Translations under genes and position numbers: made by a program
Notes under the pieces: model-generated
The model's database searches: none
Told to the model about the DNA's origin: nothing
The model's input: only the letters and a program-made list of their open reading frames with translations
Part shown: in pieces, positions 3,170-54,103 of the stretch
How the letters are laid out: every line of letters starts with the position of its first letter
Numbering within the stretch: the first letter of the stretch is position 1
Source of the DNA: an uncultured Candidatus Saccharibacteria bacterium
GTDB taxonomy: Bacteria; Patescibacteriota; Minisyncoccia; UBA6257; 1-14-0-10-40-38
DNA: 64,000 nucleotides
NCBI GenBank assembly: GCA_964543265.1
Contig: CAZIWN010000001.1
Location: 232,977 to 296,976 of the forward strand
Reading direction: 5' to 3'

Positions 3170-3170
3170 T

Positions 3171-6605: not shown

Positions 6606-6609
6606 ATCC

Positions 6610-6645
6610 AAGCTTGCGAATACTACGAGGAGGAATAACAAAGTA
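6610..6645 (+). repeat. intergenic structured repeat, copy 1 (3' half only, truncated)
   Basis: aagcttgcgaatactacgaggaggaataacaaagta matches the second half of the consensus (..AAGC.ATGCGGATACT.CGAGGAG.AAC.ACGAAGTA). Confidence 0.6.
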
Positions 6646-6672
6646 GATCGCTATTAAAATTGAAAAGCTTTT

Positions 6673-13211: not shown

Positions 13212-13231
13212 ATATAAGACAGATTTCAATC

Positions 13232-15126: not shown

Positions 15127-15188
15127 ATAATACCAGAAATAATAAAATTTGTAAATAAATTACAAATCTTTCGATTATAAAAGATCAG

Positions 15189-15266
15189 CTACAAGGCGCG
15201 AGTGAGTACCGACTGAGATGTATTGATATAAATACTTCGAAGGAGGAGTGGAGTGAGCAACGCCGT
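15189..15266 (+). repeat. intergenic structured repeat, copy 2 (long subfamily with central palindrome)
   Basis: tacAAGGCGCGAGTGAGTACCGACTGAGATGTATTGATATAAATACTTCGAAGGAGGAG...AACGCCGTA. Flanked by inverted repeat cgattataaaagatcagc / gatgaattttataattg. Confidence 0.75.
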
Positions 15267-15323
15267 AGATGAATTTTATAATTGAAAGTATAAAAAAAAT
15301 GAGACCGATTGGTCTCATTTTTT

Positions 15324-18290: not shown

Positions 18291-18408
18291 AAAGTAAAAT
18301 TATAACAGAACCAATAAAAACAATGTATTCAAACCTCTTTAATTTAAATTCTTATATTCAACTAAAAATCGCTAGTGCTAGATAGATATAATTTTCAAAT
18401 TTTATAAA

Positions 18409-18473
18409 TACAAGGCGTTTCGACGAAGTTGTATCAGAGCCATGCGGATACTACGAGAAGAAACAACGAAGTA
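18409..18473 (+). repeat. intergenic structured repeat, copy 3 (short subfamily)
   Basis: tacAAGGCGTTTCGACGAAGTTGTATCAGAGCCATGCGGATACTACGAGAAGAAACAACGAAGTA. Confidence 0.8.
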
Positions 18474-18492
18474 TTTTTCAAAAATCAAAACA

Positions 18493-20566: not shown

Positions 20567-20655
20567 ACAAAAAAACTTTGTATTTTTCCACTGACTAAAA
20601 TAGAATAAGAGTATTAATCTTAGAAAAATACCAAAATATTAATATTTTTAACAAA

Positions 20656-20718
20656 GACAAGGCGTTTTTGCGAAGCTGTATCAAGCAATGCGGATACAGC
20701 GAGTAAAAAGAACGCAGT
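20656..20718 (+). repeat. intergenic structured repeat, copy 4 (short subfamily), immediately upstream of dnaE
   Basis: gacAAGGCGTTTTTGCGAAGCTGTATCAAGCAATGCGGATACAGCGAGTAAAAAGAACGCAGTA. Its internal ATG is in frame with dnaE and creates a spurious N-terminal extension in the ORF track. Confidence 0.75.
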
Positions 20719-20747
20719 ATTTGTTAGTAAAGATTAATATTAAACCA

Positions 20748-28064: not shown

Positions 28065-28865
28065 ATGGCAAAAATCTTCATTGCCAACATTCCCGTTTGG
28101 CATGGAGGATTGGTTAAGGTTCTTAGGGGGCTTGGAATTCACGACAAACTAATTGTGATTAGTGCAGAAATAGCAAATGGCCTTGCCGGAGAAGAGATTG
28201 ACGAAAGAAGACTTCCTGATTCAGAAGCTGTTCACTGCGCCAAGCAACACGTCTGGTCCAGGGTGGAACTACTTACTCTTAAAAATATAGAAAAAATAAG
28301 AGATGACAAAGATATTGCCGTAAGCGCCACAGACGACGAAGTTACAAGGCGAGTTATAGCAAAAGTGTTTCCCAAGGCAAGGATCGCTTGGCTTAACACC
28401 TTCTCAAAAGCAGAAAGTGTAGGCAGAGACGCTGTGGTAATAGTCGAAGAAGCATCCGTTCAAGTAAGAGAAATTCGACTAATGATGCTTGCCGAAGCTC
28501 AAGCCAAGCTTTCCCCGCTCAAAGACCTTCTCTCTGGCGCAGTTCTATCCTCAGAAGATGGTCGATTCTTGGGCAAAGCTGGCATCAGACACCTACCCAC
28601 CGAATTCGAGCCATTTCTTGACGACAATCGCCTCTCCATCGCCCATCCGATCGCAATACTCGTTGCCCTGTCTGCCAGAAACGGATTGTCTATTATGGGA
28701 TCGACAATTTACTCCACCGATTTTCCTTGCACCACTTGCGCTAAGATCATAGGTGTTTCCGGAATAAAGACTGTTTTTGTAAAATACGGAAACAATACAA
28801 GAAGCCTGCAAATACTCCGCGCCTTTGGAGTAAAAGTAATAAGAATTGTGTCCAAAAAAGACTAG
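28065..28865 (+). CDS. cytidine/dCMP-deaminase-fold protein with atypical active site (HPI instead of HAE; PCTTC retained)
   Basis: C-terminus AHPIAILVAL...FPCTTCAKIIGVSGIKTVFV aligns to the dCMP deaminase HAE...PCxxC...GIK..VY pattern. About 45% GC. Confidence 0.45.
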   Translation: MAKIFIANIPVWHGGLVKVLRGLGIHDKLIVISAEIANGLAGEEIDERRLPDSEAVHCAKQHVWSRVELLTLKNIEKIRDDKDIAVSATDDEVTRRVIAKVFPKARIAWLNTFSKAESVGRDAVVIVEEASVQVREIRLMMLAEAQAKLSPLKDLLSGAVLSSEDGRFLGKAGIRHLPTEFEPFLDDNRLSIAHPIAILVALSARNGLSIMGSTIYSTDFPCTTCAKIIGVSGIKTVFVKYGNNTRSLQILRAFGVKVIRIVSKKD

Positions 28866-28905
28866 TGCCAAGTTACCGCATGCGGTAACTTGGCACTGTT
28901 TTTTT
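28864..28905 (+). terminator. 34-bp perfect palindrome plus T-run (terminator of 28065..28865)
   Basis: agtgccaagttaccgcatgcggtaacttggcact then gttttttt. Confidence 0.75.
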
Positions 28906-29990: not shown

Positions 29991-30818
29991 ATGAAAATTT
30001 ATAACGATGTTCTAAAAAAAATCTTAGAAAACGGCGTTGATAGAAAAGGTAGAAATGCTATGACTCGCGCACTTTTTGCAATTCAAATGCGTTTTAACTT
30101 AGAAGATGGATTTCCAGCCGTAACCACTAAACAATTAGCGTTTAATGGAGTAAAAAGCGAATTACTTTGGTTTTTAGAAGGTAGTAATAGCGACGAAAGA
30201 TTAAAAGAGATTTTAGGAAAAGATCGCACAATTTGGACCGATAATGCTAATGCTCCATATTGGATAGATAAAGCAAAATTTCCAGGAGATCTCGGAAGAA
30301 TTTATGGAGTTCAATGGAGGCACTGGAAAAGAACAGACGGAAAAGAAGTAGATCAAATAGCTCATCTTATTAATAAACTAAAAACAGACCCAAACGATCG
30401 TCGCCTGGTAGTTACCTCCTGGAATCCAGGAGAATTAGATCAAATGGCCCTCCCTCCTTGTCATATGATTTTTCAATTCTTTGCCGCTAATGGAAAACTT
30501 TCTTTACACATGACTCAACGCAGTTGCGATATGTTTTTGGGGGTTCCGTTTAATATCGCCTCTTATTCGCTGCTCTTAGCCATGATTGCGCAAGTGGTTA
30601 ACATGACTCCACACGAGTTTGTAATCACCCTCAATGATGCTCATATTTATCACGAACATTTTGATGCAGTAAAAGAACAATTATCCAGAGAACCAAAAAA
30701 ACTGCCAAAACTTTGGCTAAATCCAGAAATTAAAGATATAAATAAATTTACAATGGATGATATTAAGCTTGTAGACTATGAACACTATCCAACTATCAAA
30801 GCCAAAATGATAGTTTAA
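29991..30818 (+). CDS. thyA: thymidylate synthase
   Basis: QMRFNLEDGFPAVTTK, catalytic PPCH, RSCDMFLGVPFNIASY. Asn at the dUMP-specificity position. Confidence 0.9.
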   Translation: MKIYNDVLKKILENGVDRKGRNAMTRALFAIQMRFNLEDGFPAVTTKQLAFNGVKSELLWFLEGSNSDERLKEILGKDRTIWTDNANAPYWIDKAKFPGDLGRIYGVQWRHWKRTDGKEVDQIAHLINKLKTDPNDRRLVVTSWNPGELDQMALPPCHMIFQFFAANGKLSLHMTQRSCDMFLGVPFNIASYSLLLAMIAQVVNMTPHEFVITLNDAHIYHEHFDAVKEQLSREPKKLPKLWLNPEIKDINKFTMDDIKLVDYEHYPTIKAKMIV

Positions 30819-30822
30819 AATA

Positions 30823-30851
30823 AAAAAACCGCCATCTCGGCGGTTTTTTTA
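30823..30851. terminator. bidirectional terminator between thyA and rplK
   Basis: aaaaaaaccgccatctcggcggttttttt. Confidence 0.7.
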
Positions 30852-30853
30852 TT

Positions 30854-31279
30854 TTAGTCTTTAACCTCAATACCCATATTCTTTGCTGTTCCTGCGATAA
30901 TTCTCACAGCAGCATCGATATTATCCGTATTTAAATCGGCTTTCTTCTTTTCAGCTATATCCCTTAAATCAGCTTTAGTAACTGTTCCAACTTTTGTTTT
31001 ATTTGGAACTCCAGATCCTTTTTCAATCTTAGCTGCCTTCTTAAGCAAAGATGAAGCTGGAGGGGTTTTTAATATGAAACTAAACGATCTATCTTCATAA
31101 ATAGTGATAACTGCTGGCACAACATCTCCAACCATTTCCTTGGTTTTATCATTAAATTCCTTACAAAAACCAGCGATATTAATACCCTGTGGTCCGAGAG
31201 CTGTTCCTATTGGTGGTTGAGGAGTAGCCTTACCTGCCTCTATTTGAAGTTTTATTACTGCCTTAATTCCTTTTGCCAT
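30854..31279 (-). CDS. rplK: 50S ribosomal protein L11
   Basis: [35 protein letters not shown]. Start trimmed to MAKGIK. Confidence 0.9.
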
Positions 31280-31407
31280 GTTTTTATTGTTTATACATAA
31301 TACATCGAACAAATTTAAAAATCAAACGCCAAAACAAAAAACCAACAATATTAAGATTTTTCATAAATACAGCCTAATTTTTCAATCTTGAAATATTAAA
31401 TAGTTAT

Positions 31408-31488
31408 ATGCAAGGCTTGGCCGAGAAGCGAACCGAGATGTACTAAATATTAGTACTTCGAGGGAGCATCGGAGGCCGTAACGAAGCA
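31408..31488 (+). repeat. intergenic structured repeat, copy 5 (long subfamily, central palindrome gtactaaatattagtac)
   Basis: atgCAAGGCTTGGCCGAGAAGCGAACCGAGATGTACTAAATATTAGTACTTCGAGGGAGCATCGGAGGCCGTAACGAAGCA. Flanks aaatagttat / gatagctattt are inverted. Confidence 0.8.
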
Positions 31489-31512
31489 GATAGCTATTTA
31501 AAATTTCAAAAA

Positions 31513-32166
31513 CTAAAGCTTTTGGACTTGCAAACTGTCTAACTCTACGGAAGTCTCTCTGCCGAATATAGTAACCAATACCTTTATCTTGCCTTTTTCA
31601 GCGTCAATTTCAGAAATCTTAGCATCATAATCCTTAAAAGGACCATCGGTAATCTTAATCATATCACCGACTTTCATATCAATATTAAACTTCATCTCCT
31701 TACCCTCCATCTTACCCATCAATTCCTCTATTTCTTTTCTTGAAAGTGGGCTTGGCATAGTTGATTCAGCACCAACGAACCCTGTAACGCGAGGAGTGTT
31801 TCTAACCACATACCAAGAATCATCAGTCATAATCATATCTACCAAAACATATCCGTGATAAATTTTTTCGTCAGCAACCTTTCTCTTTCCGTTCTTAATC
31901 TTAACTTTTTTCTCTTTTGGAACTAAAACATTAAAAATCTTATCTTCCATTCCCAAAGTTTCAACTCTTTGTTTTAAATACCTAACAACGGCATCTTCAT
32001 AGCCAGAATAGGTATGCACGGCATACCAATTTCTTTCTGAACTATTCTTTTTTCCAACAACATCACTCTCCCTCGCAGGATCAAGTAAATTACCTATTTT
32101 CTCAACTTCCTTATTTCCAGATTCTTCCGTAGGCAAATTTGCTCCAACGTTTAATTCGTCTGCCAT
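31513..32166 (-). CDS. nusG: transcription termination/antitermination factor NusG (about 40-aa acidic N-terminal extension)
   Basis: NGN domain (WYAVHTYSGYE) plus KOW (FKVGDMIKITDGPF). Lies between secE and rplK. Confidence 0.85.
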   Translation of the reverse strand: MADELNVGANLPTEESGNKEVEKIGNLLDPARESDVVGKKNSSERNWYAVHTYSGYEDAVVRYLKQRVETLGMEDKIFNVLVPKEKKVKIKNGKRKVADEKIYHGYVLVDMIMTDDSWYVVRNTPRVTGFVGAESTMPSPLSRKEIEELMGKMEGKEMKFNIDMKVGDMIKITDGPFKDYDAKISEIDAEKGKIKVLVTIFGRETSVELDSLQVQKL

Positions 32167-32173
32167 AAAATTT

Positions 32174-32353
32174 TTAAATTATTGTATTTAAAAGATACCC
32201 GAAAACAAAGTCCATTGCTCCCAAGAAAAAAGCTAAGAAAATAGAAAGTCCGATAACGATCAAGGTAAGCTTTCTGGTTTCTGCAAATGTTGGCCAGTTT
32301 ATTCGCCTAAATTCTTGATGCGCGTCTGCGAAAAACAATTTAATTCTATTCAT
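32174..32353 (-). CDS. secE: preprotein translocase subunit SecE (59 aa; below the ORF-track cutoff)
   Basis: Hand translation gives MNRIKLFFADAHQEFRRINWPTFAETRKLTLIVIGLSIFLAFFLGAMDFVFGYLLNTII. Single TM. Conserved secE-nusG order. Confidence 0.7.
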   Translation of the reverse strand: MNRIKLFFADAHQEFRRINWPTFAETRKLTLIVIGLSIFLAFFLGAMDFVFGYLLNTII

Positions 32354-32500
32354 GGAAATATTATATGATATTACGGCTTAAAACGGCAAATGTCAACCGA
32401 GTAGTAGAAATCCGACTATGGATTTTGTCGCCTTGCGATCAGTCAGATTTTCGCTACCTGGTCAACCTCCCCAGAGATTGTTTCGCGATGATTAATTAAG

Positions 32501-32566
32501 TACAAGGAGCAACGACGAAGCTGTATTTGAGCCATGCGGATACTGCAAGGAGTTGGCGACGTAGTA
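32501..32566 (+). repeat. intergenic structured repeat, copy 6 (short subfamily)
   Basis: tacAAGGAGCAACGACGAAGCTGTATTTGAGCCATGCGGATACTGCAAGGAGTTGGCGACGTAGTA. Flanks attaattaag / aattaattaat are inverted. Confidence 0.8.
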
Positions 32567-32590
32567 ATTAATTAATAAGCGCGAAACACC

Positions 32591-34648
32591 CTATCCGCTG
32601 ATATCGAGATTTTTAACTAGAAGAGCATTAGCCTGTATAAACATTTTCCTAGGCTGAACCTCCTCGCCCATTAAGACATCAAATAATTTATCGGCTGCTT
32701 CAGCATCTTCAACGGCAACCTGGAATAACAATCTATTTGCCGGATTCATTGTCGTCTCCCAAAGCTGATCTGGATTCATCTCTCCTAAACCTTTATATCT
32801 CTGTATACTTATTCCCTTAGTATTACTATCATCAAAAACCTCTTCCACTTGGTCTTTTCCTTCTTTAACATTTTTCGCCTTTGCTTTTTGAGCCTTAATA
32901 TCCTGAAGTTCTTTTACGGTTTTATCTTTTTCTTTATCAGAATAAACATACCTCACCTCCTTTCCAGATTGAACTCTATAAAGTGGTGGTTGGGCAATAT
33001 AAAGATATCCAGCCTCTACAATTGGTTGGAAATATCTATAGAAAAGAGTAAGTAGTAAAGTTCTAATATGAGCTCCGTCAACATCTGCATCTGTCATTAA
33101 AACGATTTTATGATATCTGATTTTTGTAATATCAAACGTGTCAGCTATAGCTGTTCCAATTGCAACAACTAAAGATTTAATCTCTTTATTAAGTAACATC
33201 TTGTCTATTCTAGACTTTTCCACATTTAAAATTTTTCCTCTTAAGGGAAGAATGGCTTGAGTTCTTCTGTCTCTTCCAGATTTTGCAGATCCGCCTGCGC
33301 TATCTCCTTCAACTATAAACAGTTCCGATTCTTCTGGTTTTCTAGAGCTACAATCGGCAAGTTTTCCAGGCAAGGTCAAACCCTCCAAGGCACCCTTTCT
33401 CAAAACCATATCCTTCGCAGCTTTGGCGGCTTTTCTAGCTTTTAAAGCCAAAATACATTTTTCAATAATAGCCTTTCCGTCTTGAGTATTTCTCAATAAG
33501 AAATCTTTCAGAGCTTCGCCAACCACTGCTTCAACCGCAGTCCTCGCCTCAACGCTTCCAAGCTTGGCTTTTGTCTGTCCCTCAAATTGAGGTTCAGGAA
33601 TTTTTACCGAAACAATTCCTATAATTCCCTCTCTAACGTCATCTCCAGAAAAAGCATCTTCATTAGCTTTTAAATATCCTCCATCGCGAGCAAAATCATT
33701 TAATCCCCTAGTTAAAGCCGATCTAAAACCAGTTATGTGAGTTCCTCCATCTGGAGTGTGAATATTATTAGCGAAACTTAATTCTTTTATTTCAAATTCA
33801 TCACCGTAAGTAAAAGCTGCTTCTACTTCTAATTTTTCATAGTCTTTCTTTACATAAAAATTAGACCCTAAAATAGGTTTTCTGGAAGATGCTAAATGAT
33901 TTAGAAAAGAGTTCAATCCACCATCAAAGCAAAATCCAAAATAAGAAATATTTTTACTATCCCTAGCATCAACAACCTCCATTCTGATTCCAGCAGTCAA
34001 AAATGCCTGTTGCCTTAAACGATCTAAAATCTTTTTTAAATCAAAATTGGTATCTGGAAAAATTTCTGGATCTGGCTGGAACATTATCTTGGTTCCAGTT
34101 TTTTCAGATTTTCCAATTTTCTTAACCGGCCCCTGAACTTTTCCTTTTTTATATTCTTGAACATGAACTCCCCCATCTCTTTGAATTTCCGCCTTCATCC
34201 AAGTCGAAAGAGCGCAAACCACAGACGATCCCACTCCATGAAGACCTCCGGAAACCTTATAAGAATCTCCTCCGAATTTTCCTCCAGCGTGAAGCGTGGT
34301 TAAAACTGTTTCAAGTGTAGATTTTTTTGTTTGCGGATGTATTTCAACCGGAATTCCTCTTCCATCGTCAGTTACGGCTACAATATTATCCTCCAACAAC
34401 TCAACGCGGATATTCTTTGCATATCCGGCCATAGCTTCGTCGATTGAGTTGTCTACTATTTCCCAAATTAAGTGGTGCAATCCTTCTGGTCCAGTTGTTC
34501 CAATATACATTCCAGGACGCTTTCTAACAGGATCCAAACCCTCTAATACGAAAATATCCTTCGCTCCATACGACGCCGGTTTTTTATCTTCTTTTTTCGA
34601 TTCCTTTTTATCTTCTTTTTTAACCTCTTCTTGATCGTTTTTTGCCAT
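32591..34648 (-). CDS. gyrB: DNA gyrase subunit B
   Basis: GHKL ATPase (N..D..G motifs), Toprim (EGDSAGG, PLRGKILNVEK), C-terminal tail. Confidence 0.95.
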   Translation of the reverse strand: MAKNDQEEVKKEDKKESKKEDKKPASYGAKDIFVLEGLDPVRKRPGMYIGTTGPEGLHHLIWEIVDNSIDEAMAGYAKNIRVELLEDNIVAVTDDGRGIPVEIHPQTKKSTLETVLTTLHAGGKFGGDSYKVSGGLHGVGSSVVCALSTWMKAEIQRDGGVHVQEYKKGKVQGPVKKIGKSEKTGTKIMFQPDPEIFPDTNFDLKKILDRLRQQAFLTAGIRMEVVDARDSKNISYFGFCFDGGLNSFLNHLASSRKPILGSNFYVKKDYEKLEVEAAFTYGDEFEIKELSFANNIHTPDGGTHITGFRSALTRGLNDFARDGGYLKANEDAFSGDDVREGIIGIVSVKIPEPQFEGQTKAKLGSVEARTAVEAVVGEALKDFLLRNTQDGKAIIEKCILALKARKAAKAAKDMVLRKGALEGLTLPGKLADCSSRKPEESELFIVEGDSAGGSAKSGRDRRTQAILPLRGKILNVEKSRIDKMLLNKEIKSLVVAIGTAIADTFDITKIRYHKIVLMTDADVDGAHIRTLLLTLFYRYFQPIVEAGYLYIAQPPLYRVQSGKEVRYVYSDKEKDKTVKELQDIKAQKAKAKNVKEGKDQVEEVFDDSNTKGISIQRYKGLGEMNPDQLWETTMNPANRLLFQVAVEDAEAADKLFDVLMGEEVQPRKMFIQANALLVKNLDISG

Positions 34649-34824
34649 ATATTATTAAATAAAATAAGCTCTTAATAAGAGTTTTTGAACTACTTAATTA
34701 TATCAAAAAACTGGCCACAAAACAAGCAATTTTTACAAAAGAAAACCACCTACATTACTGTAAGTGGTCGAGGTTGAAACGCTATTTTCAAAAAGTGTCT
34801 ACAAATATCATCACCAAGCCCCTA

Positions 34825-35427
34825 TTATTTCCGTCTAATGAGAGCATAACGGCGGTCGTTCCATTCATCATCCAACCACAAACATCCCCAGAACCACCTG
34901 TAACCGCTCCAAAATAAATGACGAATACATATACCTCCAGCATCATCACGATATCTTGTTCCCCAGAAAAAGATCCATCCGATCCTCTTCCAATCATCGG
35001 GAATGAGCTCTGGGTAGGTAATTAAGTAATCAAGAACATTGGCGTTCAAAACCGGCTCTTTCTCAAGCTCTTTAAGGAGCTTATGGCCTTTAATAACCCT
35101 TCCATTTTGTTGGTTCGGCGAAAGATGCAACACTACAGCCGACAGGTTCCAGTTCAGAACTCCATCTCTTATATGATTTTCCACCTTAAGTCCATCTGGG
35201 ACTAACGGCTTGGCGTCGCAATCGATCTCCCGATTCCGATTATCCGACCCCAAATCAAGTAAATGCCGAAATGCATCTCGATCGACACCATCAACATTTC
35301 CATCTAGTAAATCTGACAATAAACCAGATTCAAGTAGATTCTGTAGGCGTTCTGGAGAAATACGTTTTTCCAGAACCATCTCTAAGATCTTCAAGCCTTG
35401 TGGCAGGGTTGCCAATTTCATTGACAA
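34825..35427 (-). CDS. hypothetical 200-aa protein with Trp-rich C-terminus in a ~45% GC islet
   Basis: ORF with SD AAGGA. Composition atypical for this genome. No family recognised. Confidence 0.3.
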   Translation of the reverse strand: MSMKLATLPQGLKILEMVLEKRISPERLQNLLESGLLSDLLDGNVDGVDRDAFRHLLDLGSDNRNREIDCDAKPLVPDGLKVENHIRDGVLNWNLSAVVLHLSPNQQNGRVIKGHKLLKELEKEPVLNANVLDYLITYPELIPDDWKRIGWIFFWGTRYRDDAGGICIRHLFWSGYRWFWGCLWLDDEWNDRRYALIRRK

Positions 35428-35721
35428 GTCCTTTTAGCTAAGGCGTCGCCGTAATCACTCCAATGCGGAGCAACTTTAGCGGGCCGATTGTGTTGCTTGG
35501 TCATAGCTTAAAAAGCTCATATTTTGTTATTTTTTTACATTAAATATTTTACTCTTTACAAAACACAAGCCCTTAAAGCTATGACCACTTTTATTACCAC
35601 TTTTTAATTAAATTGTAATGTGCTAATTAAATTTATATCACATTAATCCTTAAATGGTCAATTACTAATACACATTACTAAATATATTAGGTAATTATTT
35701 TTTAAATTCAAAAACGGCTAG

Positions 35722-35799
35722 ATGCAAGGCTTGGGCGAGAAGCGATTGAGGTGTATTAATTTAATACTCCGAAAGAGCATCGAAGACCATAACGAAGCA
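35722..35799 (+). repeat. intergenic structured repeat, copy 7 (long subfamily)
   Basis: atgCAAGGCTTGGGCGAGAAGCGATTGAGGTGTATTAATTTAATACTCCGAAAGAGCATCGAAGACCATAACGAAGCA. 24-bp inverted flanks tttaaattcaaaaacggctagatg / cagatggctgtttttcaatttaaa. Confidence 0.8.
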
Positions 35800-35822
35800 G
35801 ATGGCTGTTTTTCAATTTAAAA

Positions 35823-37118
35823 CTACCTAATAACAGCCTTCAAATCCTTAACCGTCATCTCCTCAACCTGCTTGTGAATTACGTTTATTTCTTCGTTAGT
35901 AAGCGTTCTTTCATGAGATCGATAAACAACTCTAAAGGTATAACTTTTTTTATTTTCTCCAAATTTTTTTGCGTTTTCAAATTGATCAATCAATTTAACT
36001 TCTTCTGCCAAATCCCCTGCGCAGTGTCTCACAATTTCATAAAATCCATTTAAAGATGTGGATTTATCTACAATAAAAGAAATGTCGCGGATAATTTCTG
36101 GATATTTGCTAACCTCCTCATAAACACTATTAATATTCTTAAATTGCTTTGTGATTCTTTCATCTTCAGACCACAAAACTCTAATATCTGGGATTTTCAT
36201 TTTCATAATTGCCAATCTTTCTAATCCGAATCCGAAAGCCCAGCCATTATAAATTTCTGGATCTAATCCAAAATTCCTTAAAACGTTATTATGCACGATT
36301 CCCGCACCCACAACCTCAAGCCAATCATTACCCCATTTAATTTCAATCTGAGTTGATGGATTTGTGAAAGGAAAGGCGTCGTCCAAAAACCTATATTCAA
36401 TAGAATTTCCAAAAACAGACTTCATAATATTCGCCAAAACATCCTGCAACATTTTCAGCGTTACTATTTTTTCGCTTTTTTTAGATACAAACATTCCATC
36501 TATCTGATGAAATACAGGAAAATGTTTTCTATCAATCTCATCTTTTCTATAAACTTTTCCGTAACACAATTCTCCCACCCAGCCATTTTTATTTAATCTT
36601 TCAAGAACCTCTTTGTCGCTTAAATAATAAAGCCACATAGAAGTCGTGTGAGTTCTAAGGATTCTTTCAGAATCTAAAAAATAAGTATCGGTTGGCCTTC
36701 TTCCTGGATGTTCTTGTGGAAAATTAAATAAATCAAAAGCATTTTTCACGGTTACAGTTTCCGGAATTTTAACCACATCAAAACCCTTAAAATCTTTAAT
36801 TTTTAAAATCTCATCCAAAATAAACTTAACTGGCGAATTTTCTTTGCGAGCTAAATCTGGCATTGCCATTAATCGCTTCAAGCGCACAGCATCAAAATCG
36901 TTTCCTTTTAAAATCCCAGCAACAACTGGCTTTTCTTTTAAATCTTCATACTCAATAAAGCTCCCTCCTGTTGGAGCTTTTATTTTCAAATCTTTTCTTA
37001 AAAATTGAGACTCTGGTGCGGTCTGCTTCTTTAAAAAAATAGGTGTTTTCTTTTTTAAGGTTGTCTTTTTATAAGTCTTCTTGGCTTTCAAATTTCCTTT
37101 CATCTTCATTTTATTCAT
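35823..37118 (-). CDS. pheS: phenylalanyl-tRNA synthetase alpha subunit with Lys-rich N-terminal extension
   Basis: Class II motif 3 GWAFGFGLERLAIMK. N-terminus MNKMKMKGNLKAKKTYKKTTLKKK. Confidence 0.85.
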   Translation of the reverse strand: MNKMKMKGNLKAKKTYKKTTLKKKTPIFLKKQTAPESQFLRKDLKIKAPTGGSFIEYEDLKEKPVVAGILKGNDFDAVRLKRLMAMPDLARKENSPVKFILDEILKIKDFKGFDVVKIPETVTVKNAFDLFNFPQEHPGRRPTDTYFLDSERILRTHTTSMWLYYLSDKEVLERLNKNGWVGELCYGKVYRKDEIDRKHFPVFHQIDGMFVSKKSEKIVTLKMLQDVLANIMKSVFGNSIEYRFLDDAFPFTNPSTQIEIKWGNDWLEVVGAGIVHNNVLRNFGLDPEIYNGWAFGFGLERLAIMKMKIPDIRVLWSEDERITKQFKNINSVYEEVSKYPEIIRDISFIVDKSTSLNGFYEIVRHCAGDLAEEVKLIDQFENAKKFGENKKSYTFRVVYRSHERTLTNEEINVIHKQVEEMTVKDLKAVIR

Positions 37119-37585: not shown

Positions 37586-37595
37586 CAAAAATAAA

Positions 37596-37632
37596 AACAA
37601 GACGGCCTCGTGCCGTCTTGTTTTTATTTATT
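37596..37632. terminator. bidirectional terminator (after tRNA-Asp on the plus strand and gatCAB on the minus strand)
   Basis: aaaaacaagacggcctcgtgccgtcttgttttt. Confidence 0.7.
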
Positions 37633-39555: not shown

Positions 39556-41604
<2,049 letters not shown>

Positions 41605-41669
41605 TCAAATAATACCAAAAAAACCAGACTTAAACCAAAAAAAACTCATCTCTTTTTTAGATAAATAAG

Positions 41670-41736
41670 TACAAGAAGCGACGACGAAGCTGTATATAAG
41701 CGAAAGCGAATACTGCGAGGAGGAGACGACGAAGTA
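41670..41736 (+). repeat. intergenic structured repeat, copy 8 (short subfamily)
   Basis: tacAAGAAGCGACGACGAAGCTGTATATAAGCGAAAGCGAATACTGCGAGGAGGAGACGACGAAGTA. Perfect ~21-bp inverted flanks tctcttttttagataaataag / attatttatctaaaaagagat. Confidence 0.85.
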
Positions 41737-41745
41737 ATTATTTAT

Positions 41746-42207
41746 CTAAAAAGAGATACTAAAGGCTCTAGCGGCCGACCCAGCTCTTCCGACAGATTTA
41801 ATACAAGTAAGAACATCTGGAGTCGTTCCCTCATCATGAACCGCACCAAAAGGACAGCCAGCATCTTTAGAAATTAAAAGCTCATAAGTCTGATTGTCGG
41901 TTAATTTACCAGTAAAAGAATTATCATATTGATTATTTCCAGACTCCAAACAAACATCAGTAGAGGCGATAAGCGCCTGATCTGGTGCATTTAAATTATT
42001 ACACCTAAAAACCTTAAAAAGACCTCTCTCCAACGCTGCGTCTGCGGAATATATTGCCTTAACGGAATCAACGGCTATATTCGTTTGTCTAGTTTGATTT
42101 AAGGTTAAAACACCAGCAACAGTAGTTGCGACCAAAAATACAGACGCCAAAAACAAAACAGTAACCAACATAACTTGCCCAGAACTATTTTTATTAAAAA
42201 AGTACAT
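41746..42207 (-). CDS. pilus-assembly / minor pilin-like protein (PilX-like N-terminal helix)
   Basis: N-terminal hydrophobic helix MLVTVLFLASVFLVATTVAGVL. Position in the pilin cluster. Confidence 0.4.
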   Translation of the reverse strand: MYFFNKNSSGQVMLVTVLFLASVFLVATTVAGVLTLNQTRQTNIAVDSVKAIYSADAALERGLFKVFRCNNLNAPDQALIASTDVCLESGNNQYDNSFTGKLTDNQTYELLISKDAGCPFGAVHDEGTTPDVLTCIKSVGRAGSAARAFSISF

Positions 42208-42215
42208 TTTTTAAA

Positions 42216-42773
42216 TTATTCAAAATTTCTTGCAGAAGTTGTCATTTGTAAATCGGTAAATATTCCAGTCAACTTTGGATCCTTTGACCCAACTCTTAAA
42301 AATAAATTTACTCTCGAAGGCCATTCTTCTCCAAAACTAGATAATAATTTTAAGTCAACTAACCTCACCTCAAAAATCTGCACATCAACCAAAGATGAAG
42401 TTAATCTTTCAAAAGTAACTCCCAAATCATCACTTTTTTCTACTGATTTTTCTACAGAGTTAAGTCTATATATGGAATCTCCTCCTTTTGCATTTCTGAA
42501 TCTAAAGGAATTACCAACATCTCCACCAATACAACTACCAGAAAAATCAGCAACACAAAAACTAGATCCAGTTCTAATATCTCTGGAAATAGATTCTAAA
42601 ACTAAACTAGAATTATCATTTGTAGCCATAAGAGAAATAACCGCTTTTTGCACTCTTAAAGAATTAACGAATATTCCAGAAACAATACCCACTAGAATAA
42701 CGAAAATAGCCATCGAGACCAAGAGCTCAACAACAGTAAATCCATTATTAATTTTAATTTTTAATCTTTGCAT
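42216..42773 (-). CDS. type IV minor pilin-like protein (prepilin N-methylation motif)
   Basis: NNG-FTVVELLVSMAIFVILVGIVSGIF (G|FTxxE). Confidence 0.6.
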   Translation of the reverse strand: MQRLKIKINNGFTVVELLVSMAIFVILVGIVSGIFVNSLRVQKAVISLMATNDNSSLVLESISRDIRTGSSFCVADFSGSCIGGDVGNSFRFRNAKGGDSIYRLNSVEKSVEKSDDLGVTFERLTSSLVDVQIFEVRLVDLKLLSSFGEEWPSRVNLFLRVGSKDPKLTGIFTDLQMTTSARNFE

Positions 42774-42785
42774 TTTAATGTTGCT

Positions 42786-43418
42786 TTACGGCGTTCTCCA
42801 TGGAAGAAAAAAGTCTTGAACCAATAACGAAAACTTACCACCCTTACTTTCCCAACCAACAGCAGAAGTCACTCTATATTCTAAATCTAAATCCGGAGTT
42901 GCCCCAGAATGGGGATCATCTATTATTATAAGTCTTTTAAATTTAGTCCTATTTCCAGAAGGATCATAAGAATATCTGCCCGCATCAGAATAAGTTATAT
43001 TTCTAGCATCCGAACAGCTAAAAAGAAGATCATACACATTTTTCTTATTTGGCTCTCCGCCAATAACACAAGAATCTATTTTTCTTAAAACATTATCATC
43101 AAAACCAACTTCATAAATACCAGCCTCAATCTTTCCCGCGCCCCAACCATAAAAAGAATACGGAGAGGCATTATCTCTTTCTATAATATATTGTCTATCA
43201 AAAAAATTCTTTATTATTTCAATCCCCTCAGCCGATAAAAACGTTGCCGTATAAGTATCACCATTAATTCTATTAAAACCCAAAGACTTATTTAATAAAG
43301 TTACAATACCCAAAACAGCAGCAATAATCGCCGATGATGCTACCAATAATTCTATGATGGATTGACCTTTATTTTTATGAAAAATCATATTTGATTCAAT
43401 TTTTTCAAAGTCTAGCAA
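42786..43418 (-). CDS. type IV minor pilin-like protein
   Basis: KGQSIIELLVASSAIIAAVLGIV prepilin-like leader and helix. Confidence 0.5.
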   Translation of the reverse strand: MLDFEKIESNMIFHKNKGQSIIELLVASSAIIAAVLGIVTLLNKSLGFNRINGDTYTATFLSAEGIEIIKNFFDRQYIIERDNASPYSFYGWGAGKIEAGIYEVGFDDNVLRKIDSCVIGGEPNKKNVYDLLFSCSDARNITYSDAGRYSYDPSGNRTKFKRLIIIDDPHSGATPDLDLEYRVTSAVGWESKGGKFSLLVQDFFLPWRTP

Positions 43419-44080
43419 GAGGTTGTAAACTCATCTAAATTAATCTGAGAGGATCTATTTATTTTTATTAAAGAACATCCACCTCCAGAAAATTCAAGCT
43501 GAACATTAGCCTCCTTATAGCTAGGACTATCTGGATTAAAAATAACAGTTGGATCTGGTGGCTGAAAGAAAACATCCATAGAAGTTTTTGAAGAAGCTGA
43601 GCTACAAGAAAATCCGGAAGGTAAAACATCTAAGCATTTAAATTCTAATATATTTTTATCAAGAGTTCCTTTTTCAAAAACCTGAGCCGGCTCAGACGGA
43701 TCAAAAACTCCAACACTAGATCCAGAACATGTCCCCGATGGATCTATATCTTTATATACATAATAAGAATCATCACCCGAAGAATTCTTTTCAAAATGAA
43801 CTCCCCATCCGCAAATAATCTCCGTTGGTCTAATTCCGGAAATAGTAAATTGAGTGGGCTGATAAGTTTCTAATGAATATGATTTAGCTTTAAAAATGGC
43901 GCTCACGACCAATGATCTTTCGTTTGAAAAAATTAAAAACTTTCTACTATCTCCAGAATAAATTATTAAAATAGATGAAAGGACAACTGAGATACCAAGA
44001 ACAACCACCATCTCGATAACGGTAAAAGCTGACTCTGAAAAGAATTTTTTAAAAAATTTACTACCAATCATTAATTTCAT
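43412..44080 (-). CDS. type IV minor pilin-like protein
   Basis: SAFTVIEMVVVLGISVVL prepilin-like helix. Confidence 0.5.
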   Translation of the reverse strand: MKLMIGSKFFKKFFSESAFTVIEMVVVLGISVVLSSILIIYSGDSRKFLIFSNERSLVVSAIFKAKSYSLETYQPTQFTISGIRPTEIICGWGVHFEKNSSGDDSYYVYKDIDPSGTCSGSSVGVFDPSEPAQVFEKGTLDKNILEFKCLDVLPSGFSCSSASSKTSMDVFFQPPDPTVIFNPDSPSYKEANVQLEFSGGGCSLIKINRSSQINLDEFTTSC

Positions 44081-44085
44081 CCTGA

Positions 44086-45045: not shown

Positions 45046-45058
45046 ACATTAATTAATC
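45010..45058 (+). repeat. intergenic structured repeat, copy 9a (degenerate 5' part of long subfamily)
   Basis: agctacaaggcgcgagtga is identical to the 19-mer in copy 2. The rest has decayed. Confidence 0.55.
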
Positions 45059-45073
45059 TTTATTTGAGATGAG

Positions 45074-45138
45074 TACAAGACGCGACGACGAAAGTGTACA
45101 TAAGCTAAGCGAGTACTCTGAGGAGGAGCAACGCAGTA
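45074..45138 (+). repeat. intergenic structured repeat, copy 9b (short subfamily), tandem to 9a
   Basis: tacAAGACGCGACGACGAAAGTGTACATAAGCTAAGCGAGTACTCTGAGGAGGAGCAACGCAGTA. 12-bp inverted flanks tatttgagatga / tcatctcaaata. Confidence 0.8.
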
Positions 45139-45155
45139 ATCATCTCAAATATAAA

Positions 45156-46263: not shown

Positions 46264-46303
46264 ATATTTTTAATTCTTCTAATTTGGATTTATAAAGAGC
46301 AGA

Positions 46304-46367
46304 TACGAGACGTTTCGAGGAAGTTGCATCAAGCTATGCGGATACTACGACGAGAAACAACGAAGTA
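46304..46367 (+). repeat. intergenic structured repeat, copy 10 (short subfamily)
   Basis: tacGAGACGTTTCGAGGAAGTTGCATCAAGCTATGCGGATACTACGACGAGAAACAACGAAGTA. Confidence 0.8.
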
Positions 46368-46388
46368 TATGCCTTTATAAATTCAAAT

Positions 46389-47600: not shown

Positions 47601-47620
47601 AATTCCTATTTTTTATTTCT

Positions 47621-48694: not shown

Positions 48695-48790
48695 ATTTGT
48701 TTATTTATAAATTATAACTTATTTAGTAATCCCCTGCGAAGTGTAAAAATATATAAAATCTATTTAAGAAAATTATAAAAATTAAGAAAG

Positions 48791-48855
48791 TGCGCAGAGC
48801 GACGACGAAGTTGCATTAAAGCTGTGCGGATACTGCGAGGAGAAACGACAAAGCA
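48791..48855 (+). repeat. intergenic structured repeat, copy 11 (short subfamily)
   Basis: tgcGCAGAGCGACGACGAAGTTGCATTAAAGCTGTGCGGATACTGCGAGGAGAAACGACAAAGCA. Confidence 0.8.
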
Positions 48856-48875
48856 ATTTCTTCATTTTTATAATT

Positions 48876-50615
48876 TTAAACCACTTCCGTTTCGCTAATT
48901 ACATCCTCTATCGAAACAAGTCCCTGCAAAGCTTTTATAATTCCGTCTTGCCTCAATGAGACCATTCCTTGTCTTTCAGCTTCCTTAGAAATATCATTCT
49001 CTGAAAAATTCTTTCCGGCCAAAATCTGAGACAATTCTTTTGTCATCTCAAAAACTTCAAAAATAGCCACACGACCAACTATTCCCTTATTTTTACAAAC
49101 CTTACAACCATTAGCTTTATACACCTTAAACGGTTCTTTTATCTGAAACTTGCTCTGTATGGAAGATAATTCTTTCTTTATAACATTTAAAATCTCTGGT
49201 GATGGATCGTGCGACGTCTTACAGTTATCGCACAATTTAGAAATCAATCTTTGTCCCGCCATAGCAGAAATCGCGGAAGGTAAAAGATATCCAGAAACAC
49301 CCAAATCTATTAATCTAGGAATAACTCCGACAGCATTATTTGTGTGTAAAGTTGAAAGCAGTATGTGACCAGTTAAAGCAGCATTAACGGCCAAATCTGC
49401 AGTTTCTTTATCGCGAATTTCTCCAACCATTAAAATATCCGGATCTTGTCTTAATATTTCTCTAAGTCCTGACGCAAAGCTATATCCTATCTCTGGCTTA
49501 ATTTGAGATTGATTAATGCCCTCAATCGTATATTCAACAGGATCTTCCAAACTCATAACATTAACATTTTCCTTATTTAAAATTTTCATCAGAGCATACA
49601 AAGTGGTTGTTTTTCCTGATCCAGTTGGACCAGTTAGAAGAACCATACCATAAGCCCTCTCTATAGCCCTTCTTAGAATTTCCGAGCTTTGTCCAACAAT
49701 ACCCAAATCCTCAAGATTTTTTAAGCCAGTAGCGCTATCCAAAACCCTCAAAGCAACCTTTTCGCCATTAGGTGTTGGGAAAGTTGAAACCCTGAAATCT
49801 ATTTCCTTTTCAAAAATCATCGTCCTAAATCTTCCATCTTGGGGAATCCTGGTTTCATCCAGCTTCAAACTAGAAAGAATTTTTACACGAGAAACTATGG
49901 CCTGAGATAATTCTGGAGGAAAAGAAGTGTATTCTTCTAAATTTCCATTTAATCTAAATCTAACCCTAGTCTTTAGTCTTCCCGGCTCTATATGAATATC
50001 AGATGCTTTAGCCCCCACAGCCTCTTTCAAAAGACCAGAAACTATTCTTATTATGGGAGCGCCAATTTCTTTATTTGAAGAACTGGCTTCATCTAGCTTA
50101 ATAATTTTTTGAAACGATTTAAATTCGTCAGCTCCTTTTTCCGATTTTAAAAAACTTAAAGCTTCCTTTATCTCATCCGATATTGGATTATATTTATTAA
50201 TTACCGCATAAACATCAGAAGGAGTAACTATATAAACACCAAGGTTAACCTTTTCTCTTGAAGCTAAAAATTTTAAAGCCTGCTGGGCTTGTGTATCGTC
50301 TGGATTCACCATTCCAACCACAATCATATCCTGAGTTCTACTCATAGGAGTCATCTTAAAACTCCTAGCATTATCAAAAGGAATTAACTTAACTAAATCT
50401 TCTGATATAGAAGCAACATCTATTTTTTTAAAAGGTATTTTTAAGATTCTTGATTTTATCTTAGCAACATCATCTTCGGAAACTAAATTATCAGAATAAA
50501 TAACCTCTTCAGCAGTTTTTTTTACAGAATCAGCCTCTCTTAAAACCCTAGACCCATCTTCTTGTGTTAAAAGACCTTCTGTTACTAAGGCAGAAATTAA
50601 ATCCTGGTTTTTCAT
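48876..50615 (-). CDS. pilB: type IV pilus assembly ATPase PilB (GspE family)
   Basis: N-terminal GspII domain. Walker A GPTGSGKTT. Tetracysteine CDNC...CKVC. 579 aa. Confidence 0.85.
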   Translation of the reverse strand: MKNQDLISALVTEGLLTQEDGSRVLREADSVKKTAEEVIYSDNLVSEDDVAKIKSRILKIPFKKIDVASISEDLVKLIPFDNARSFKMTPMSRTQDMIVVGMVNPDDTQAQQALKFLASREKVNLGVYIVTPSDVYAVINKYNPISDEIKEALSFLKSEKGADEFKSFQKIIKLDEASSSNKEIGAPIIRIVSGLLKEAVGAKASDIHIEPGRLKTRVRFRLNGNLEEYTSFPPELSQAIVSRVKILSSLKLDETRIPQDGRFRTMIFEKEIDFRVSTFPTPNGEKVALRVLDSATGLKNLEDLGIVGQSSEILRRAIERAYGMVLLTGPTGSGKTTTLYALMKILNKENVNVMSLEDPVEYTIEGINQSQIKPEIGYSFASGLREILRQDPDILMVGEIRDKETADLAVNAALTGHILLSTLHTNNAVGVIPRLIDLGVSGYLLPSAISAMAGQRLISKLCDNCKTSHDPSPEILNVIKKELSSIQSKFQIKEPFKVYKANGCKVCKNKGIVGRVAIFEVFEMTKELSQILAGKNFSENDISKEAERQGMVSLRQDGIIKALQGLVSIEDVISETEVV

Positions 50616-50621
50616 TTTTAT

Positions 50622-50915: not shown

Positions 50916-50920
50916 AAATT

Positions 50921-52017: not shown

Positions 52018-52061
52018 TTTTTATACAAATTTCTCTACAAAATCTTGAAAGATAAAGTAAT

Positions 52062-52127
52062 TACAAGGAGCTCTGACGAAGCCGTATTAAAGCCAAGCAC
52101 ATACGGCAAGAAAGAATCGATGCAGTA
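52062..52127 (+). repeat. intergenic structured repeat, copy 12 (short subfamily, perfect internal stem gccgtat/atacggc)
   Basis: tacAAGGAGCTCTGACGAAGCCGTATTAAAGCCAAGCACATACGGCAAGAAAGAATCGATGCAGTA. Confidence 0.8.
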
Positions 52128-52148
52128 ATTGGCTAGTTTGCAAATATT

Positions 52149-53979: not shown

Positions 53980-54018
53980 AAACCACATAGGATTTATAAT
54001 TTAAATAAATTTAAAAAA

Positions 54019-54094
54019 TACGAGGAGTTTCGACGAAGGTGTATGTAAGCCACGCGAATACTCCGAGGAGAAAACGACAAAGTATTTTTTAAAT
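54019..54094 (+). repeat. intergenic structured repeat, copy 13 (short subfamily)
   Basis: tacGAGGAGTTTCGACGAAGGTGTATGTAAGCCACGCGAATACTCCGAGGAGAAAACGACAAAGTA. Perfect 16-bp inverted flanks aaataaatttaaaaaa / ttttttaaatttattt. Confidence 0.85.
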
Positions 54095-54103
54095 TTATTT
54101 AAA

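Follow-up and report, generated by a model that had tools for sequence, protein, structure and literature searches.

Interspersed intergenic hairpins with a conserved core of predicted tandem G.A pairs in a Paceibacteria lineage: a candidate REP/MITE-like element

Positions 32501-32566 of the window (the whole 64-kb stretch of contig CAZIWN010000001.1 analysed here) are the conserved ~66-nt tip, or core, of one copy, A32497, of a family of intergenic hairpins that we call family A. Nine full family-A copies, three full copies of a longer related family B with the same layout and two truncated relics were found in the 64 kb, all in one chromosomal orientation. On balance, and with modest confidence, we favour the view that the element is an interspersed non-coding hairpin of one Paceibacteria lineage, similar to repetitive extragenic palindromes (REPs) and miniature transposable elements with inverted repeats (MITEs), which spreads or once spread as selfish DNA. 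Judged from the sequences compared, it appears to be new among intergenic palindromes: its centre is conserved and its ends vary, and the centre would be a stacked tandem-G.A helix. The census was based on the 64 kb of the window plus about 150 kb of relatives' loci, taken around the GyrB, PilB and SMC orthologues of three related genomes: relative X (loci L034 and L043), GCA_009694925.1 (L028 and L045) and relative Y (L029 and L040).

Fold of the core and of its flanking arms

The stretch reads TAC AAGGAGCAACGACGAAG CTGTAT TTGAGCCATGCGG ATACTGC AAGGAGTTGGCGACGTAG TA, and the letters and layout given for it in the initial annotation, which had been made from the sequence alone, agree at these coordinates. 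All parts of copy A32497 were placed on the + strand. The outer stem P1 begins with the copy-specific 5' arm GTTTCGCGATGATTAATTAAG (32479..32500), recognised by RNA folding and by the complementarity that is kept as arms vary. It is followed by TAC (32501..32503), the conserved P1 closing pairs, identified from pair conservation among the nine copies. Next come the 5' half-site CAAGGAGCAACGACGAAG (32503..32520), assigned by alignment and a register test to the 5' strand of a G.A-ladder helix, and the 5' arm GCTGTAT of the apical stem P2 (32520..32526, placed by covariation), in which T32522 takes part in a T.T mismatch. The terminal loop TTGAGCCATGCGG (32527..32539), defined by alignment, contains a 2-bp mini-stem GC/GC closed by A.G. 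Beyond it lie the P2 3' arm ATACTGC (32540..32546, again from covariation), the 3' half-site CAAGGAGTTGGCGACGTAG (32546..32564), assigned by alignment and the register test to the 3' strand of the ladder helix, and GTA plus the P1 3' arm ATTAATTAATAAGCGCGAAAC (32564..32588), found by folding with flanks. The gyrB stop codon (32591-32593) is 3 nt from the end of this last arm. Folding of 32462-32592 as RNA gave -38.5 kcal/mol with z = -4.0, a value equalled by none of 200 shuffles. The P1 closing pairs 17-83, 18-82 and 19-81 were conserved in 8, 8 and 9 of the nine copies, respectively, with one compensatory TGC/GCA change in copy 48788. The TA within 32501..32503 may, from its sequence, be a duplicated target dinucleotide.

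The outermost arms of copy A32497 (32479-32490 and 32577-32588) read TGTTTCGCG...CGCGAAACA, and if joined they resemble the parS palindrome TGTTNCACGTGAAACA with two symmetric changes. A split parS was rejected because the window holds no parS-like site and the arms of the other copies are unrelated. The likeness is probably a coincidence.

The nine family-A copies were aligned together with 15-nt flanks. The RNAalifold consensus of this alignment comprised 30 pairs, 20 of which keep pairing through changes on both sides. In an explicit 33-pair structure, 84.2% of the cells were standard pairs, compared with 33-45% when the 3' partners were slid by 1-3 columns. The covariation score was 0.423 versus 0.176 in shuffles, with none of 500 shuffles as high; these shuffles ignore kinship among the copies, for which the slid-register control allows. 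With longer flanks the whole hairpin measured about 110-155 nt, its AT-rich, copy-specific outer stem P1 accounting for 10-38 bp. P1 differs completely across copies yet stays complementary, with double changes at 14 of the 17 modelled pairs. The mean pairwise identity of the two family-A arms was 0.46 and 0.42, against a background of 0.37 +/- 0.12, though 84% of the positions pair. Such complementarity without sequence conservation points either to selection on the hairpin or to template-switch correction of quasi-palindromes, a known mutational process that we only infer here. Five copies were folded with flanks on the + strand: four of them gave z-scores of -3.4 to -5.6, and copy 18406 gave z = -1.0.

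The apical stem P2 has the 7-bp consensus GNUGUAU/AUACUN'C. It is perfect in two copies, 52059 (GCCGTAT/ATACGGC) and 20653 (GCTGTAT/ATACAGC), and carries the T.T (in RNA, U.U) mismatch at a fixed position in the other seven of the nine. Pair 37-62 takes four forms (C-G in four copies, U-A in two, G-C in two and U-G in one), and pairs 36-63 and 42-57 each show one double change. The mini-stem of the loop, invariant across the nine copies, shows a compensatory replacement of C-G by U-A in the orthologue of copy 20653 in relative X (L043). The same apex, GUAU/AUAC marked by U.U, is found in family B (GNUGUAU/AUACUN'C). Compensatory changes back every helix, both between copies and between orthologues in two species.

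The half-repeats, which had been described as two direct sites on either side of a small hairpin, have the consensus C-AA-G-GA-G-yTT-C-GA-C-GAA-G for the 5' half and C-GA-G-GA-G-AAA-C-GA-C-GAA-G for the 3' half. Apart from a single A-versus-G difference close to the 5' end, they diverge only in the central spacer, and the two versions of this spacer are mutually complementary. Within copies, 7-15 of 18-19 positions were identical between the halves, a similarity that was significant against shuffles in five of the nine copies. In our structural model the half-repeats are not independent half-sites; they would pair antiparallel as one irregular helix forming the tip of the hairpin. The Watson-Crick rungs of this ladder correspond to columns 19-81, 22-77, 25-74, 29-69, 32-66 and 36-63, and between the rungs lie tandem mismatches of the type G.A/A.G, or A.A or C.A. 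The spacer adds 3-5 Watson-Crick base pairs, such as GUUUC/GAAAC or CAAC/GUUG. With the strands placed in this register, 52 of the 54 rung cells were paired and 51 of 72 intervening cells were G.A or A.G, whereas slid registers gave at most 32 and 40, respectively. Individual oppositions were recovered repeatedly: G33.A65 in all nine copies, G30.A68 in eight, A34.G64 in seven, and A31.G67 and G23.A76 in six each. A24.G75 was present in 5 copies and replaced by C24.A75 in the remaining 4. The rungs themselves covary, 32-66 being C-G in eight copies and G-C in one, and 29-69 being C-G in seven and U-A in two. In copy 20653 and in the B2 copies, Watson-Crick pairs stand in register where others have G.A. 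In family B the ladder shows G45.A71 and A46.G70 in six of six sequences, and likewise G25.A92 with C26.A91.

Both ladder strands read C-RA-G-GA-G-NNN-C-GA-C-GAA-G. Because the tandem G.A step reads GA on both of them, the duplex is pseudo-twofold, and the halves look like direct repeats because a helix of such steps yields two strands that are alike when read 5' to 3'. The half-repeat similarity noted initially is thus kept in the nine-copy alignment, as a shared consensus, and its central stem covaries (at 37-62, 36-63 and 42-57); neither loss of the similarity nor absence of covariation was found. What stood of the initial description is the conservation of two like-oriented, purine-rich halves; what fell is their separateness, as they are paired in one helix. 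Over the paralogous copies, the mean column identity was 0.88 for rungs, 0.83 for mismatch purines and 0.61 for both spacer and arms. This conservation of non-Watson-Crick positions would be in keeping with a trans-acting factor, perhaps a symmetric dimer, that recognises the element.

These data bear directly on a second suggestion of the initial annotation, namely that the half-sites are a protein-binding site in double-stranded DNA, or a recombinase or transposase end, with ~20-bp direct half-sites and an incidental hairpin. The 5' to 3' consensus shared by the halves and the conservation of the core sequence would agree with it. Against this, the halves pair with each other and undergo compensatory rung swaps, the changes in four helices show selection on intrastrand pairing rather than on duplex sequence, the spacers of the halves are complementary rather than identical, and the halves are strongly purine-asymmetric. 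The element is also without terminal inverted repeats, no recombinase or transposase gene was found among the about 60 open reading frames scanned in the window, and the twelve sites follow unrelated housekeeping and pilus genes, unlike those of one regulon. We thus hold such a site to be very improbable.

The AGGAG at the start of each half had been likened to a Shine-Dalgarno sequence. It is indeed exact in three of the nine 5' halves and five of the nine 3' halves, but degenerates elsewhere to AAGGCG, AAGAAG or AAGACG. Because of this degeneration, and because the copies are mostly antisense to their neighbours, we take the motif for a by-product of the G.A ladder and not for a ribosome-binding site. 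We also agree that a conserved peptide is unlikely: an ATG is found in the loop of four of the nine copies, the frames differ, and most copies are antisense to neighbouring genes.

Three other local structures were considered. At the inner motif, the compensatory change to G32-C66 in copy 46302 speaks against local C-GNA-G mini-hairpins; for the outer ladder motif such a mini-hairpin may be an alternative to ladder pairing. A kink-turn was rejected, as the would-be A2b in ACGNAG varies between A, C and T, G1b is A in 2 copies, and the bulge has 1 nt instead of 3. H-DNA was rejected because the halves are direct, not mirror, repeats.

Copies, strand and gene context

A search with nhmmer detected the nine full family-A copies (18406, 20653, 32497, 41666, 45071, 46302, 48788, 52059 and 54016) with E-values of 1e-16 to 1e-21, all on the + strand. 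The core pattern had 5 matches in the window versus 0.00 expected from 100 shuffles, and a repeat finder picked up the family of 32501-32566 as D1-D4. The pairwise core identity among A copies was 0.72. The full copies of family B lie at 15185, 31403 and 35717, and the family-A covariance model recovers them end to end with E-values of 1e-3 to 0.8, which are rough because the calibration was shortened. Together the structured repeats occupy about 2% of the window and are placed at gene boundaries.

All copies are on the + strand. Besides A32497, family A is found in the gap between rnc (RNase III) and smc (18393..18489; covariance model 91.3 bits, nhmmer E 9e-22) and, as a whole hairpin, between a 144-aa + gene and dnaE (20610..20741), where it is detected by the covariance model and kept in L043. 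A whole hairpin also occupies the gap between a 153-aa gene and ligA (41648..41757), with the stop codon inside the outer stem. Further copies were found between the pilin and prepilin peptidase genes (45058..45154, nhmmer and covariance model), between pilC and pilin (46288..46382, covariance model), where L034 has an orthologous family-B copy, and between pilB and pilT (48769..48877, a whole hairpin, covariance model). Of the last two, one follows pilM (52046..52143, nhmmer and covariance model) and has the perfect apical stem GCCGTAT/ATACGGC, and the other lies between a comF-like gene (+) and a periplasmic-binding-protein gene (-) (54003..54100, covariance model), with an outer stem of ~30 bp. 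Seven of the nine A copies are situated between genes of the pilus/competence cluster (41.6-54.1 kb).

Family B is represented by a copy of subtype B1, with conserved arms, in the khpA-trmD gap (15168..15288), by a copy in the nusG-rplK gap (31388..31509) with an orthologue in L029, and by a copy after pheS (35685..35832). Arms of ~24 bp, AATTATAAAAGxTCAGCTAC...GTAGATGAxTTTTATAATT, are conserved in subtype B1 and common to the window and L034 copies; such arm sharing is confined to this subtype (4 copies in two genomes). The two relics are a family-A 3' half that abuts a canonical terminator (6607..6646; nhmmer E 7.9e-5, model positions 30-70) and a family-B1 5' half beside copy A45071 (44989..45039, repeat family D5). 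The copy after pheS stands at one end of a ~1.2-kb pheS-gyrB segment (34650-35830) that is absent from L028 and L029, where the gap is 85-120 nt. This segment carries a 200-aa open reading frame (ORF) on the minus strand (34825-35427) with a Trp-rich C-terminus, for which neither Pfam nor NCBIfam gave a match; it may represent a partner gene or else an insertion of unrelated origin.

At the gathering threshold, Rfam found only tRNAs in the window, and at E <= 10 over 41600-54200 it gave no overlap with the elements and, beyond tRNAs, only two chance miRNA matches. Exact-pattern scans of GTDB genomes, JGI metagenomes and IMG/VR returned single chance matches in unrelated taxa, none of which was upheld by nhmmer or the covariance model. 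BLAST of the core against phage and plasmid records gave no match, and there was none in viral contigs. Short Logan contigs from two runs were 99.9-100% identical to the window, and the closest GyrB, PilB and SMC proteins belong to metagenome-assembled genomes of Candidatus Paceibacteria/Patescibacteria.

On the + strand the half-sites are 73% purine, with 34% G versus 14% in the background, and a minus-strand ladder would hold C.U/U.C mismatches. The core alone was more stable on the + strand in 11 of 12 copies, with means of -15.0 and -11.2 kcal/mol for the two strands (Wilcoxon p = 0.003). Orthologue changes that interchange G.U with G-C, or U.G with U-A, on the + strand would be A.C mismatches on the minus strand. 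The outer stems contain 10 G.U pairs on the + strand versus 29 on the minus strand, where composition alone predicts about 1:1.9. By these models the + strand is the better-folding one, and RNA and single-stranded DNA are both possible.

The genes of the window include gyrB, secE-nusG-rplK, smc, rnc, ligA, dnaE, dnaB, ribosomal protein genes and a type IV pilus cluster. The GC skew of the + strand is negative throughout, at -0.28 for genes of the minus strand and about 0 for those of the plus strand; such a pattern suggests a replication component, with the minus strand as the leading strand. Ten independent sites are flanked by minus-strand genes, to which the ladder strand is antisense. The exception is copy 20653, which has a + gene on each side and lies 9 nt upstream of where dnaE starts; gene order in L043 and L045 shows its true neighbour to be the 144-aa + gene (20057-20491). 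Orientation follows the chromosome strand at 11 of 11 sites and transcription at 10 of 11, with one site separating the two and no origin/terminus switch in the window. The cores lie 9-25 nt past the stop codon of the upstream minus-strand gene, and several outer stems overlap the stop codon.

This placement raises the question of whether the transcribed, pyrimidine-rich strand is a Rho-loading signal similar to a Rho utilization (rut) site, made of C/U-rich, G-poor sense tracts around a small hairpin just past the stop codon. The layout would recall that of lambda tR1 (rutA-boxB-rutB). The sense half-sites have 34% C, 39% U and 19% G, although sense strands in this genome are rich in G; they are positioned immediately 3' of stop codons, the pyrimidine-rich strand is in the mRNA at 10 of 11 independent sites, and nusG is in the window. 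However, the rungs covary, whereas rut sites need no precise sequence, rungs or covariation; a long stem encloses the half-sites and would hinder Rho loading; and in copy 20653, the one that is strongly conserved, it is the purine-rich strand that the sense transcript carries. We found no literature on Rho in this organism, and consider this explanation improbable.

A U-run follows the hairpin on the sense transcript clearly in copy 41666 (GAGUUUUUUUU) and partially in 54016 and 48788, and none follows it in copies 32497 and 45071. Canonical bidirectional terminators, consisting of an A-run, a GC-rich stem and a T-run and forming perfect palindromes with 16-25-nt arms, were seen at 3167-3200, 13176-13215, 15291-15326, 28856-28905, 30816-30856, 37589-37629 and 57300-57339. 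Insertion of the element into such terminators was rejected, as they are GC-stemmed and none carries the core, and as the arms of the element are AT-rich. No canonical terminator-like site was found in the intergenic gaps of the pilus cluster.

TTGACA-17-TAATAT/TATAAT boxes end ~7 nt before the starts of secE, ligA and gyrB (32166-32400, 41601 and 34648, respectively), and no Shine-Dalgarno sequence is visible at these three starts. Many genes may, on these sequence grounds, be leaderless and individually transcribed, which would make each intergenic hairpin a transcript boundary. Elsewhere in the window, the minus strand at 60051-63489 carries a defence-island-like cluster composed of a GmrSD-N/HNH endonuclease (60051-61145), a ThsB-like TIR protein (61157-61876), a 145-aa protein without assignment and an EcoRI-methylase-family gene (62320-63489).

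Gain and loss among relatives, and what the element may be

Copies were present or absent among relatives whose housekeeping proteins are 84-93% identical. The gyrB-secE gap measures 425 nt in the window and 47 nt, with no palindrome, in L028, L029 and L033. The pilB-pilT gap measures 182 nt in the window, 40 nt in X and 27 nt in Y, the site being empty in L034 and L040. The dnaE-upstream site is filled in the window and in X (L043) and empty, arms included, in GCA_009694925.1 (L045). In the nusG-rplK gap a B copy is found in the window and in Y, and none in L028. In the pilC-pilin gap the flanks align, the window A copy being orthologous to the X B copy and the closing pair of the arms changing from CTAC/GTAG to ATAC/GTAT; this replacement of A by B at an orthologous site indicates that the two families form one superfamily. 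Between the 153-aa gene and ligA, relative X (L034) has palindromic arms without a core, ...GATAAACAA^TAATTATTTAT..., and the window core sits exactly at the apex of these arms, which is consistent with TA...TA. These dinucleotides flank the C...G core in seven of nine copies, TA being self-complementary and also part of the stem. The unit of gain or loss could, from these alignments, be either the core or the whole hairpin, the latter being absent as a whole in three comparisons and the core alone in one.

Relative X also contains 5' fragments left by truncation, along with a relic of a B1 3' end, and some copies are nested. The 64-kb window has 12 full copies, compared with about 4 found in 44 kb of relative X, a single one in 44 kb of Y and none in 28 kb of GCA_009694925.1. 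Gap contents also differ in other respects. The rnc-smc gap holds a single A copy and no clpP in the window, and in L043 (8969-9278 and 9278-9874) it holds an opposite-strand clpP, a full B copy and, in tandem, two truncated 5' fragments from further copies. Where the window has A54016, between the periplasmic-binding-protein gene and comF, L034 has a gene of the bAvd/23S-rRNA-IVP family (6325-6687); bAvd is an accessory gene of diversity-generating retroelements.

Copy 20653 was compared in detail between the window and X. Its 132-nt hairpin shows 7 substitutions, 6 of which keep or improve pairing: the mini-stem C-G to U-A (double), G.U to G-C, U.G to U-A, and G.G to A-U at rung 25-74. The hairpin is 94.7% identical, versus 80-85% for the flanking genes. 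The adjoining 118 nt between the 144-aa gene and A20653 (20492-20609) are 97.5% identical to L043, the most conserved part of the 5.4-kb comparison, and hold a GC-rich terminator and probably the dnaE promoter.

We propose that the element spreads, or once spread, as selfish DNA, moving via a single-stranded hairpin intermediate; a dimeric protein whose gene lies elsewhere in the genome would recognise this intermediate at the symmetric G.A ladder and the T.T stem. The element would be tolerated because it folds on itself and is located in DNA that is intercistronic or 3' untranslated. Co-transcription with the upstream gene would add a long 3' hairpin, which may stabilise the transcript or be a substrate of RNase III, and at least one copy, that upstream of dnaE, appears to have been co-opted.

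Several observations weigh against this proposal. Nothing points to recent transposition, as near-identical pairs of copies are absent (core identity 0.72), and family A lacks conserved terminal inverted repeats (arms 0.42-0.46 vs 0.37). The TA target duplication rests on one filled/empty pair (ligA vs L034), and in the three other filled/empty pairs the arms are missing from the empty site too. Pfam and NCBIfam scans of ~60 window ORFs detected no transposase, recombinase or reverse transcriptase. That the dnaE-upstream copy is more conserved than its flanks argues for a host function over selfishness, and conserved non-Watson-Crick positions are also a signature of functional RNA. Finally, sampling was limited to 64 kb of genome and about 150 kb of relatives.

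The main alternative is a functional structured RNA, acting either in cis as an intercistronic or 3'-untranslated module or as a small RNA from the + strand, bound by a homodimer or processed by RNase III, its spread being secondary; such a role would set mRNA 3' ends and stability. The stems covary, the purines of the internal loops are conserved (ladder 0.83-0.88 vs 0.61 for arms and spacer), and tandem G.A is a motif typical of RNA-protein platforms. With 20-38 bp the outer stems would suffice for RNase III; rnc, which encodes it, lies in the window (18493-19176), and in the Correia elements RNase III cuts the paired ends (PMC10969869). The location of the cores (shortly past stop codons, upstream of the promoter-like site that comes next), the pilus-cluster gaps without canonical terminators and the conservation of the dnaE-upstream copy all agree with a function of this kind. 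Conversely, the ladder strand is antisense to the flanking genes at 10 of 11 sites, and the sense ladder, made of C.U/U.C, folds worse. Orthologous sites are often empty, so the host does not need the element at those genes; truncated and nested copies resemble decay; and a U-run follows only some copies. We regard a functional RNA as a possible but clearly minority explanation.

A more speculative proposal, to which we give slightly less than that limited credence, is that the ladder helix with its T.T/U.U apex is an undescribed module for a symmetric protein of the candidate phyla radiation (CPR), either a single-stranded-DNA transposase or an RNA-binding dimer. In the first variant, a hairpin-specific single-strand DNA transposase would put the ~66-nt core at palindrome apexes, as at the ligA site; such an enzyme would explain both the conserved cores within unrelated self-complementary arms and the uniform orientation. 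In the second variant, an RNA-binding dimer would mark gene boundaries in a genome where many genes appear leaderless and individually transcribed.

Patescibacteria are tiny-celled, with very small and streamlined genomes, and no published description of such repeats in this group was found in the literature searched. The fold is remarkably regular, its stacked tandem G.A steps making up a symmetric helix, and its best-conserved positions, being the non-canonical ones, predict a specific, probably dimeric, binding partner that could be isolated. If this partner were a transposase, the family would represent a new type of non-autonomous element with its centre conserved instead of its ends; if it were an RNA-binding or processing protein, the repeats would be markers of where transcripts begin or end in organisms about whose gene regulation almost nothing is known. 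In practice, the repeats break short-read assemblies of these genomes and are usable as lineage markers.

Comparison with known systems

The order X-spacer-Y-linker-X'-spacer-Y', a terminal stem, tandem G.A and dimer-matched symmetry are shared by the element with box C/D sRNAs and with tandem interspaced guide RNA (TIGR) units (PMC12045711). A guide-RNA-like unit (box C/D, TIGR stem-loop or IS110 bridge RNA) bound by a symmetric Nop-domain dimer would have this abstract layout of a variable palindromic stem and two motif-spacer-motif blocks joined by a linker in pseudo-twofold symmetry, and TIGR systems do occur in Patescibacteria and their phages. In the known units, however, guide spacers of 8-12 nt and box C/D motifs come in tandem arrays with a Nop-domain (Tas) gene (PMC12045711). 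The element has no 8-12-nt guide spacers: its spacers are of 3-5 nt, come in few variants (TTTC three times, CGAC three times) and pair with each other. Its units are dispersed without tandem arrays, its motifs are unlike UG/CCA and RUGAUGA/CUGA, its G.A pairs lie outside a kink-turn, and the domain scans of the ~60 window ORFs found no Nop-domain or Tas protein, and no Y1 gene either. Spacer length and pairing largely refute the guide-RNA-like reading, which we consider extremely improbable.

Integron attC sites stand at the 3' end of mobile gene cassettes with boxes at the hairpin base. They were excluded, as the arms contain no R''/R' boxes (RYYYAAC...GTTRRRY) and as the flanking genes are syntenic housekeeping and pilus genes. 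Some interspersed repeats have a bias to gene 3' ends, a terminator-like hairpin and a habit of inserting into or next to one another (PMC10969869, PMC3184786). The element differs from terminator-like repeats in that a U-run follows only some copies, and the clear terminators of the genome lack the core. The element lacks at least one defining feature of IS200/IS605 ends, of kink-turns and of attC sites and, in some copies, of intrinsic terminators.

The ends of the ladder, CGAG or CRAG opposite CGNAG, resemble the sheared tandem G.A motif 5'-CGAG-3'/5'-CGAG-3' and the C-GNA-G mini-hairpin, CGAG being a favoured context for sheared tandem G.A. In the CGNAG of the ladder N varies freely, as expected for the bulged or loop base of C-GNA-G. 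Unlike a single CGAG motif, the ladder would stack up to four G.A steps with single G-C rungs in an 18-nt pseudo-symmetric helix, and we know of no described element with such an arrangement.

REPs and bacterial interspersed mosaic elements, which go with REP-associated tyrosine transposases (Y1), and palindrome-associated elements derived from the insertion sequences (IS) IS200/IS605 are likewise extragenic imperfect palindromes after genes, without terminal inverted repeats, with likely recognition of a mismatched single-stranded hairpin and uniform chromosomal orientation. IS200/IS605-type insertion takes place 3' of a fixed tetranucleotide without duplication; in the window, 7 of 9 copies have xTAC before the core, and the L034 empty site CAATAATT has no TAC. 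IS200/IS605 ends have two distinct subterminal hairpins, compared with a single central hairpin here, and the well-folding strand of the element is on the leading-strand template, not the lagging one. REPs are GC-rich, 21-65 bp long and often begin with 5' GTAG (PMC3184786), whereas the elements are AT-rich (GC 0.30-0.43), 110-155 nt long and built around a purine-ladder core, with GTAG sporadic.

Three traits define MITEs: terminal inverted repeats that are conserved, duplication of the target and a long stem-loop (PMC3184786). Like Correia/nemis of Neisseria, enterobacterial repetitive intergenic consensus (ERIC) sequences and Chunjie, the element is non-coding, ~100-150 nt long and present in many intergenic copies with a long stem-loop; it is present or absent between relatives and has nested and truncated copies. 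The likeness to Correia elements extends to a possible TA duplication and to paired ends long enough for RNase III (PMC3184786, PMC10969869). By size and copy number (<~400 bp, non-coding, multi-copy, long stem-loop) the 12 full copies of 110-155 nt fall within the MITEs. No cognate IS was found in the window, and the termini of the element core are direct, not inverted, repeats. Above all, MITEs keep their terminal inverted repeats around a variable core, and family A does the reverse.

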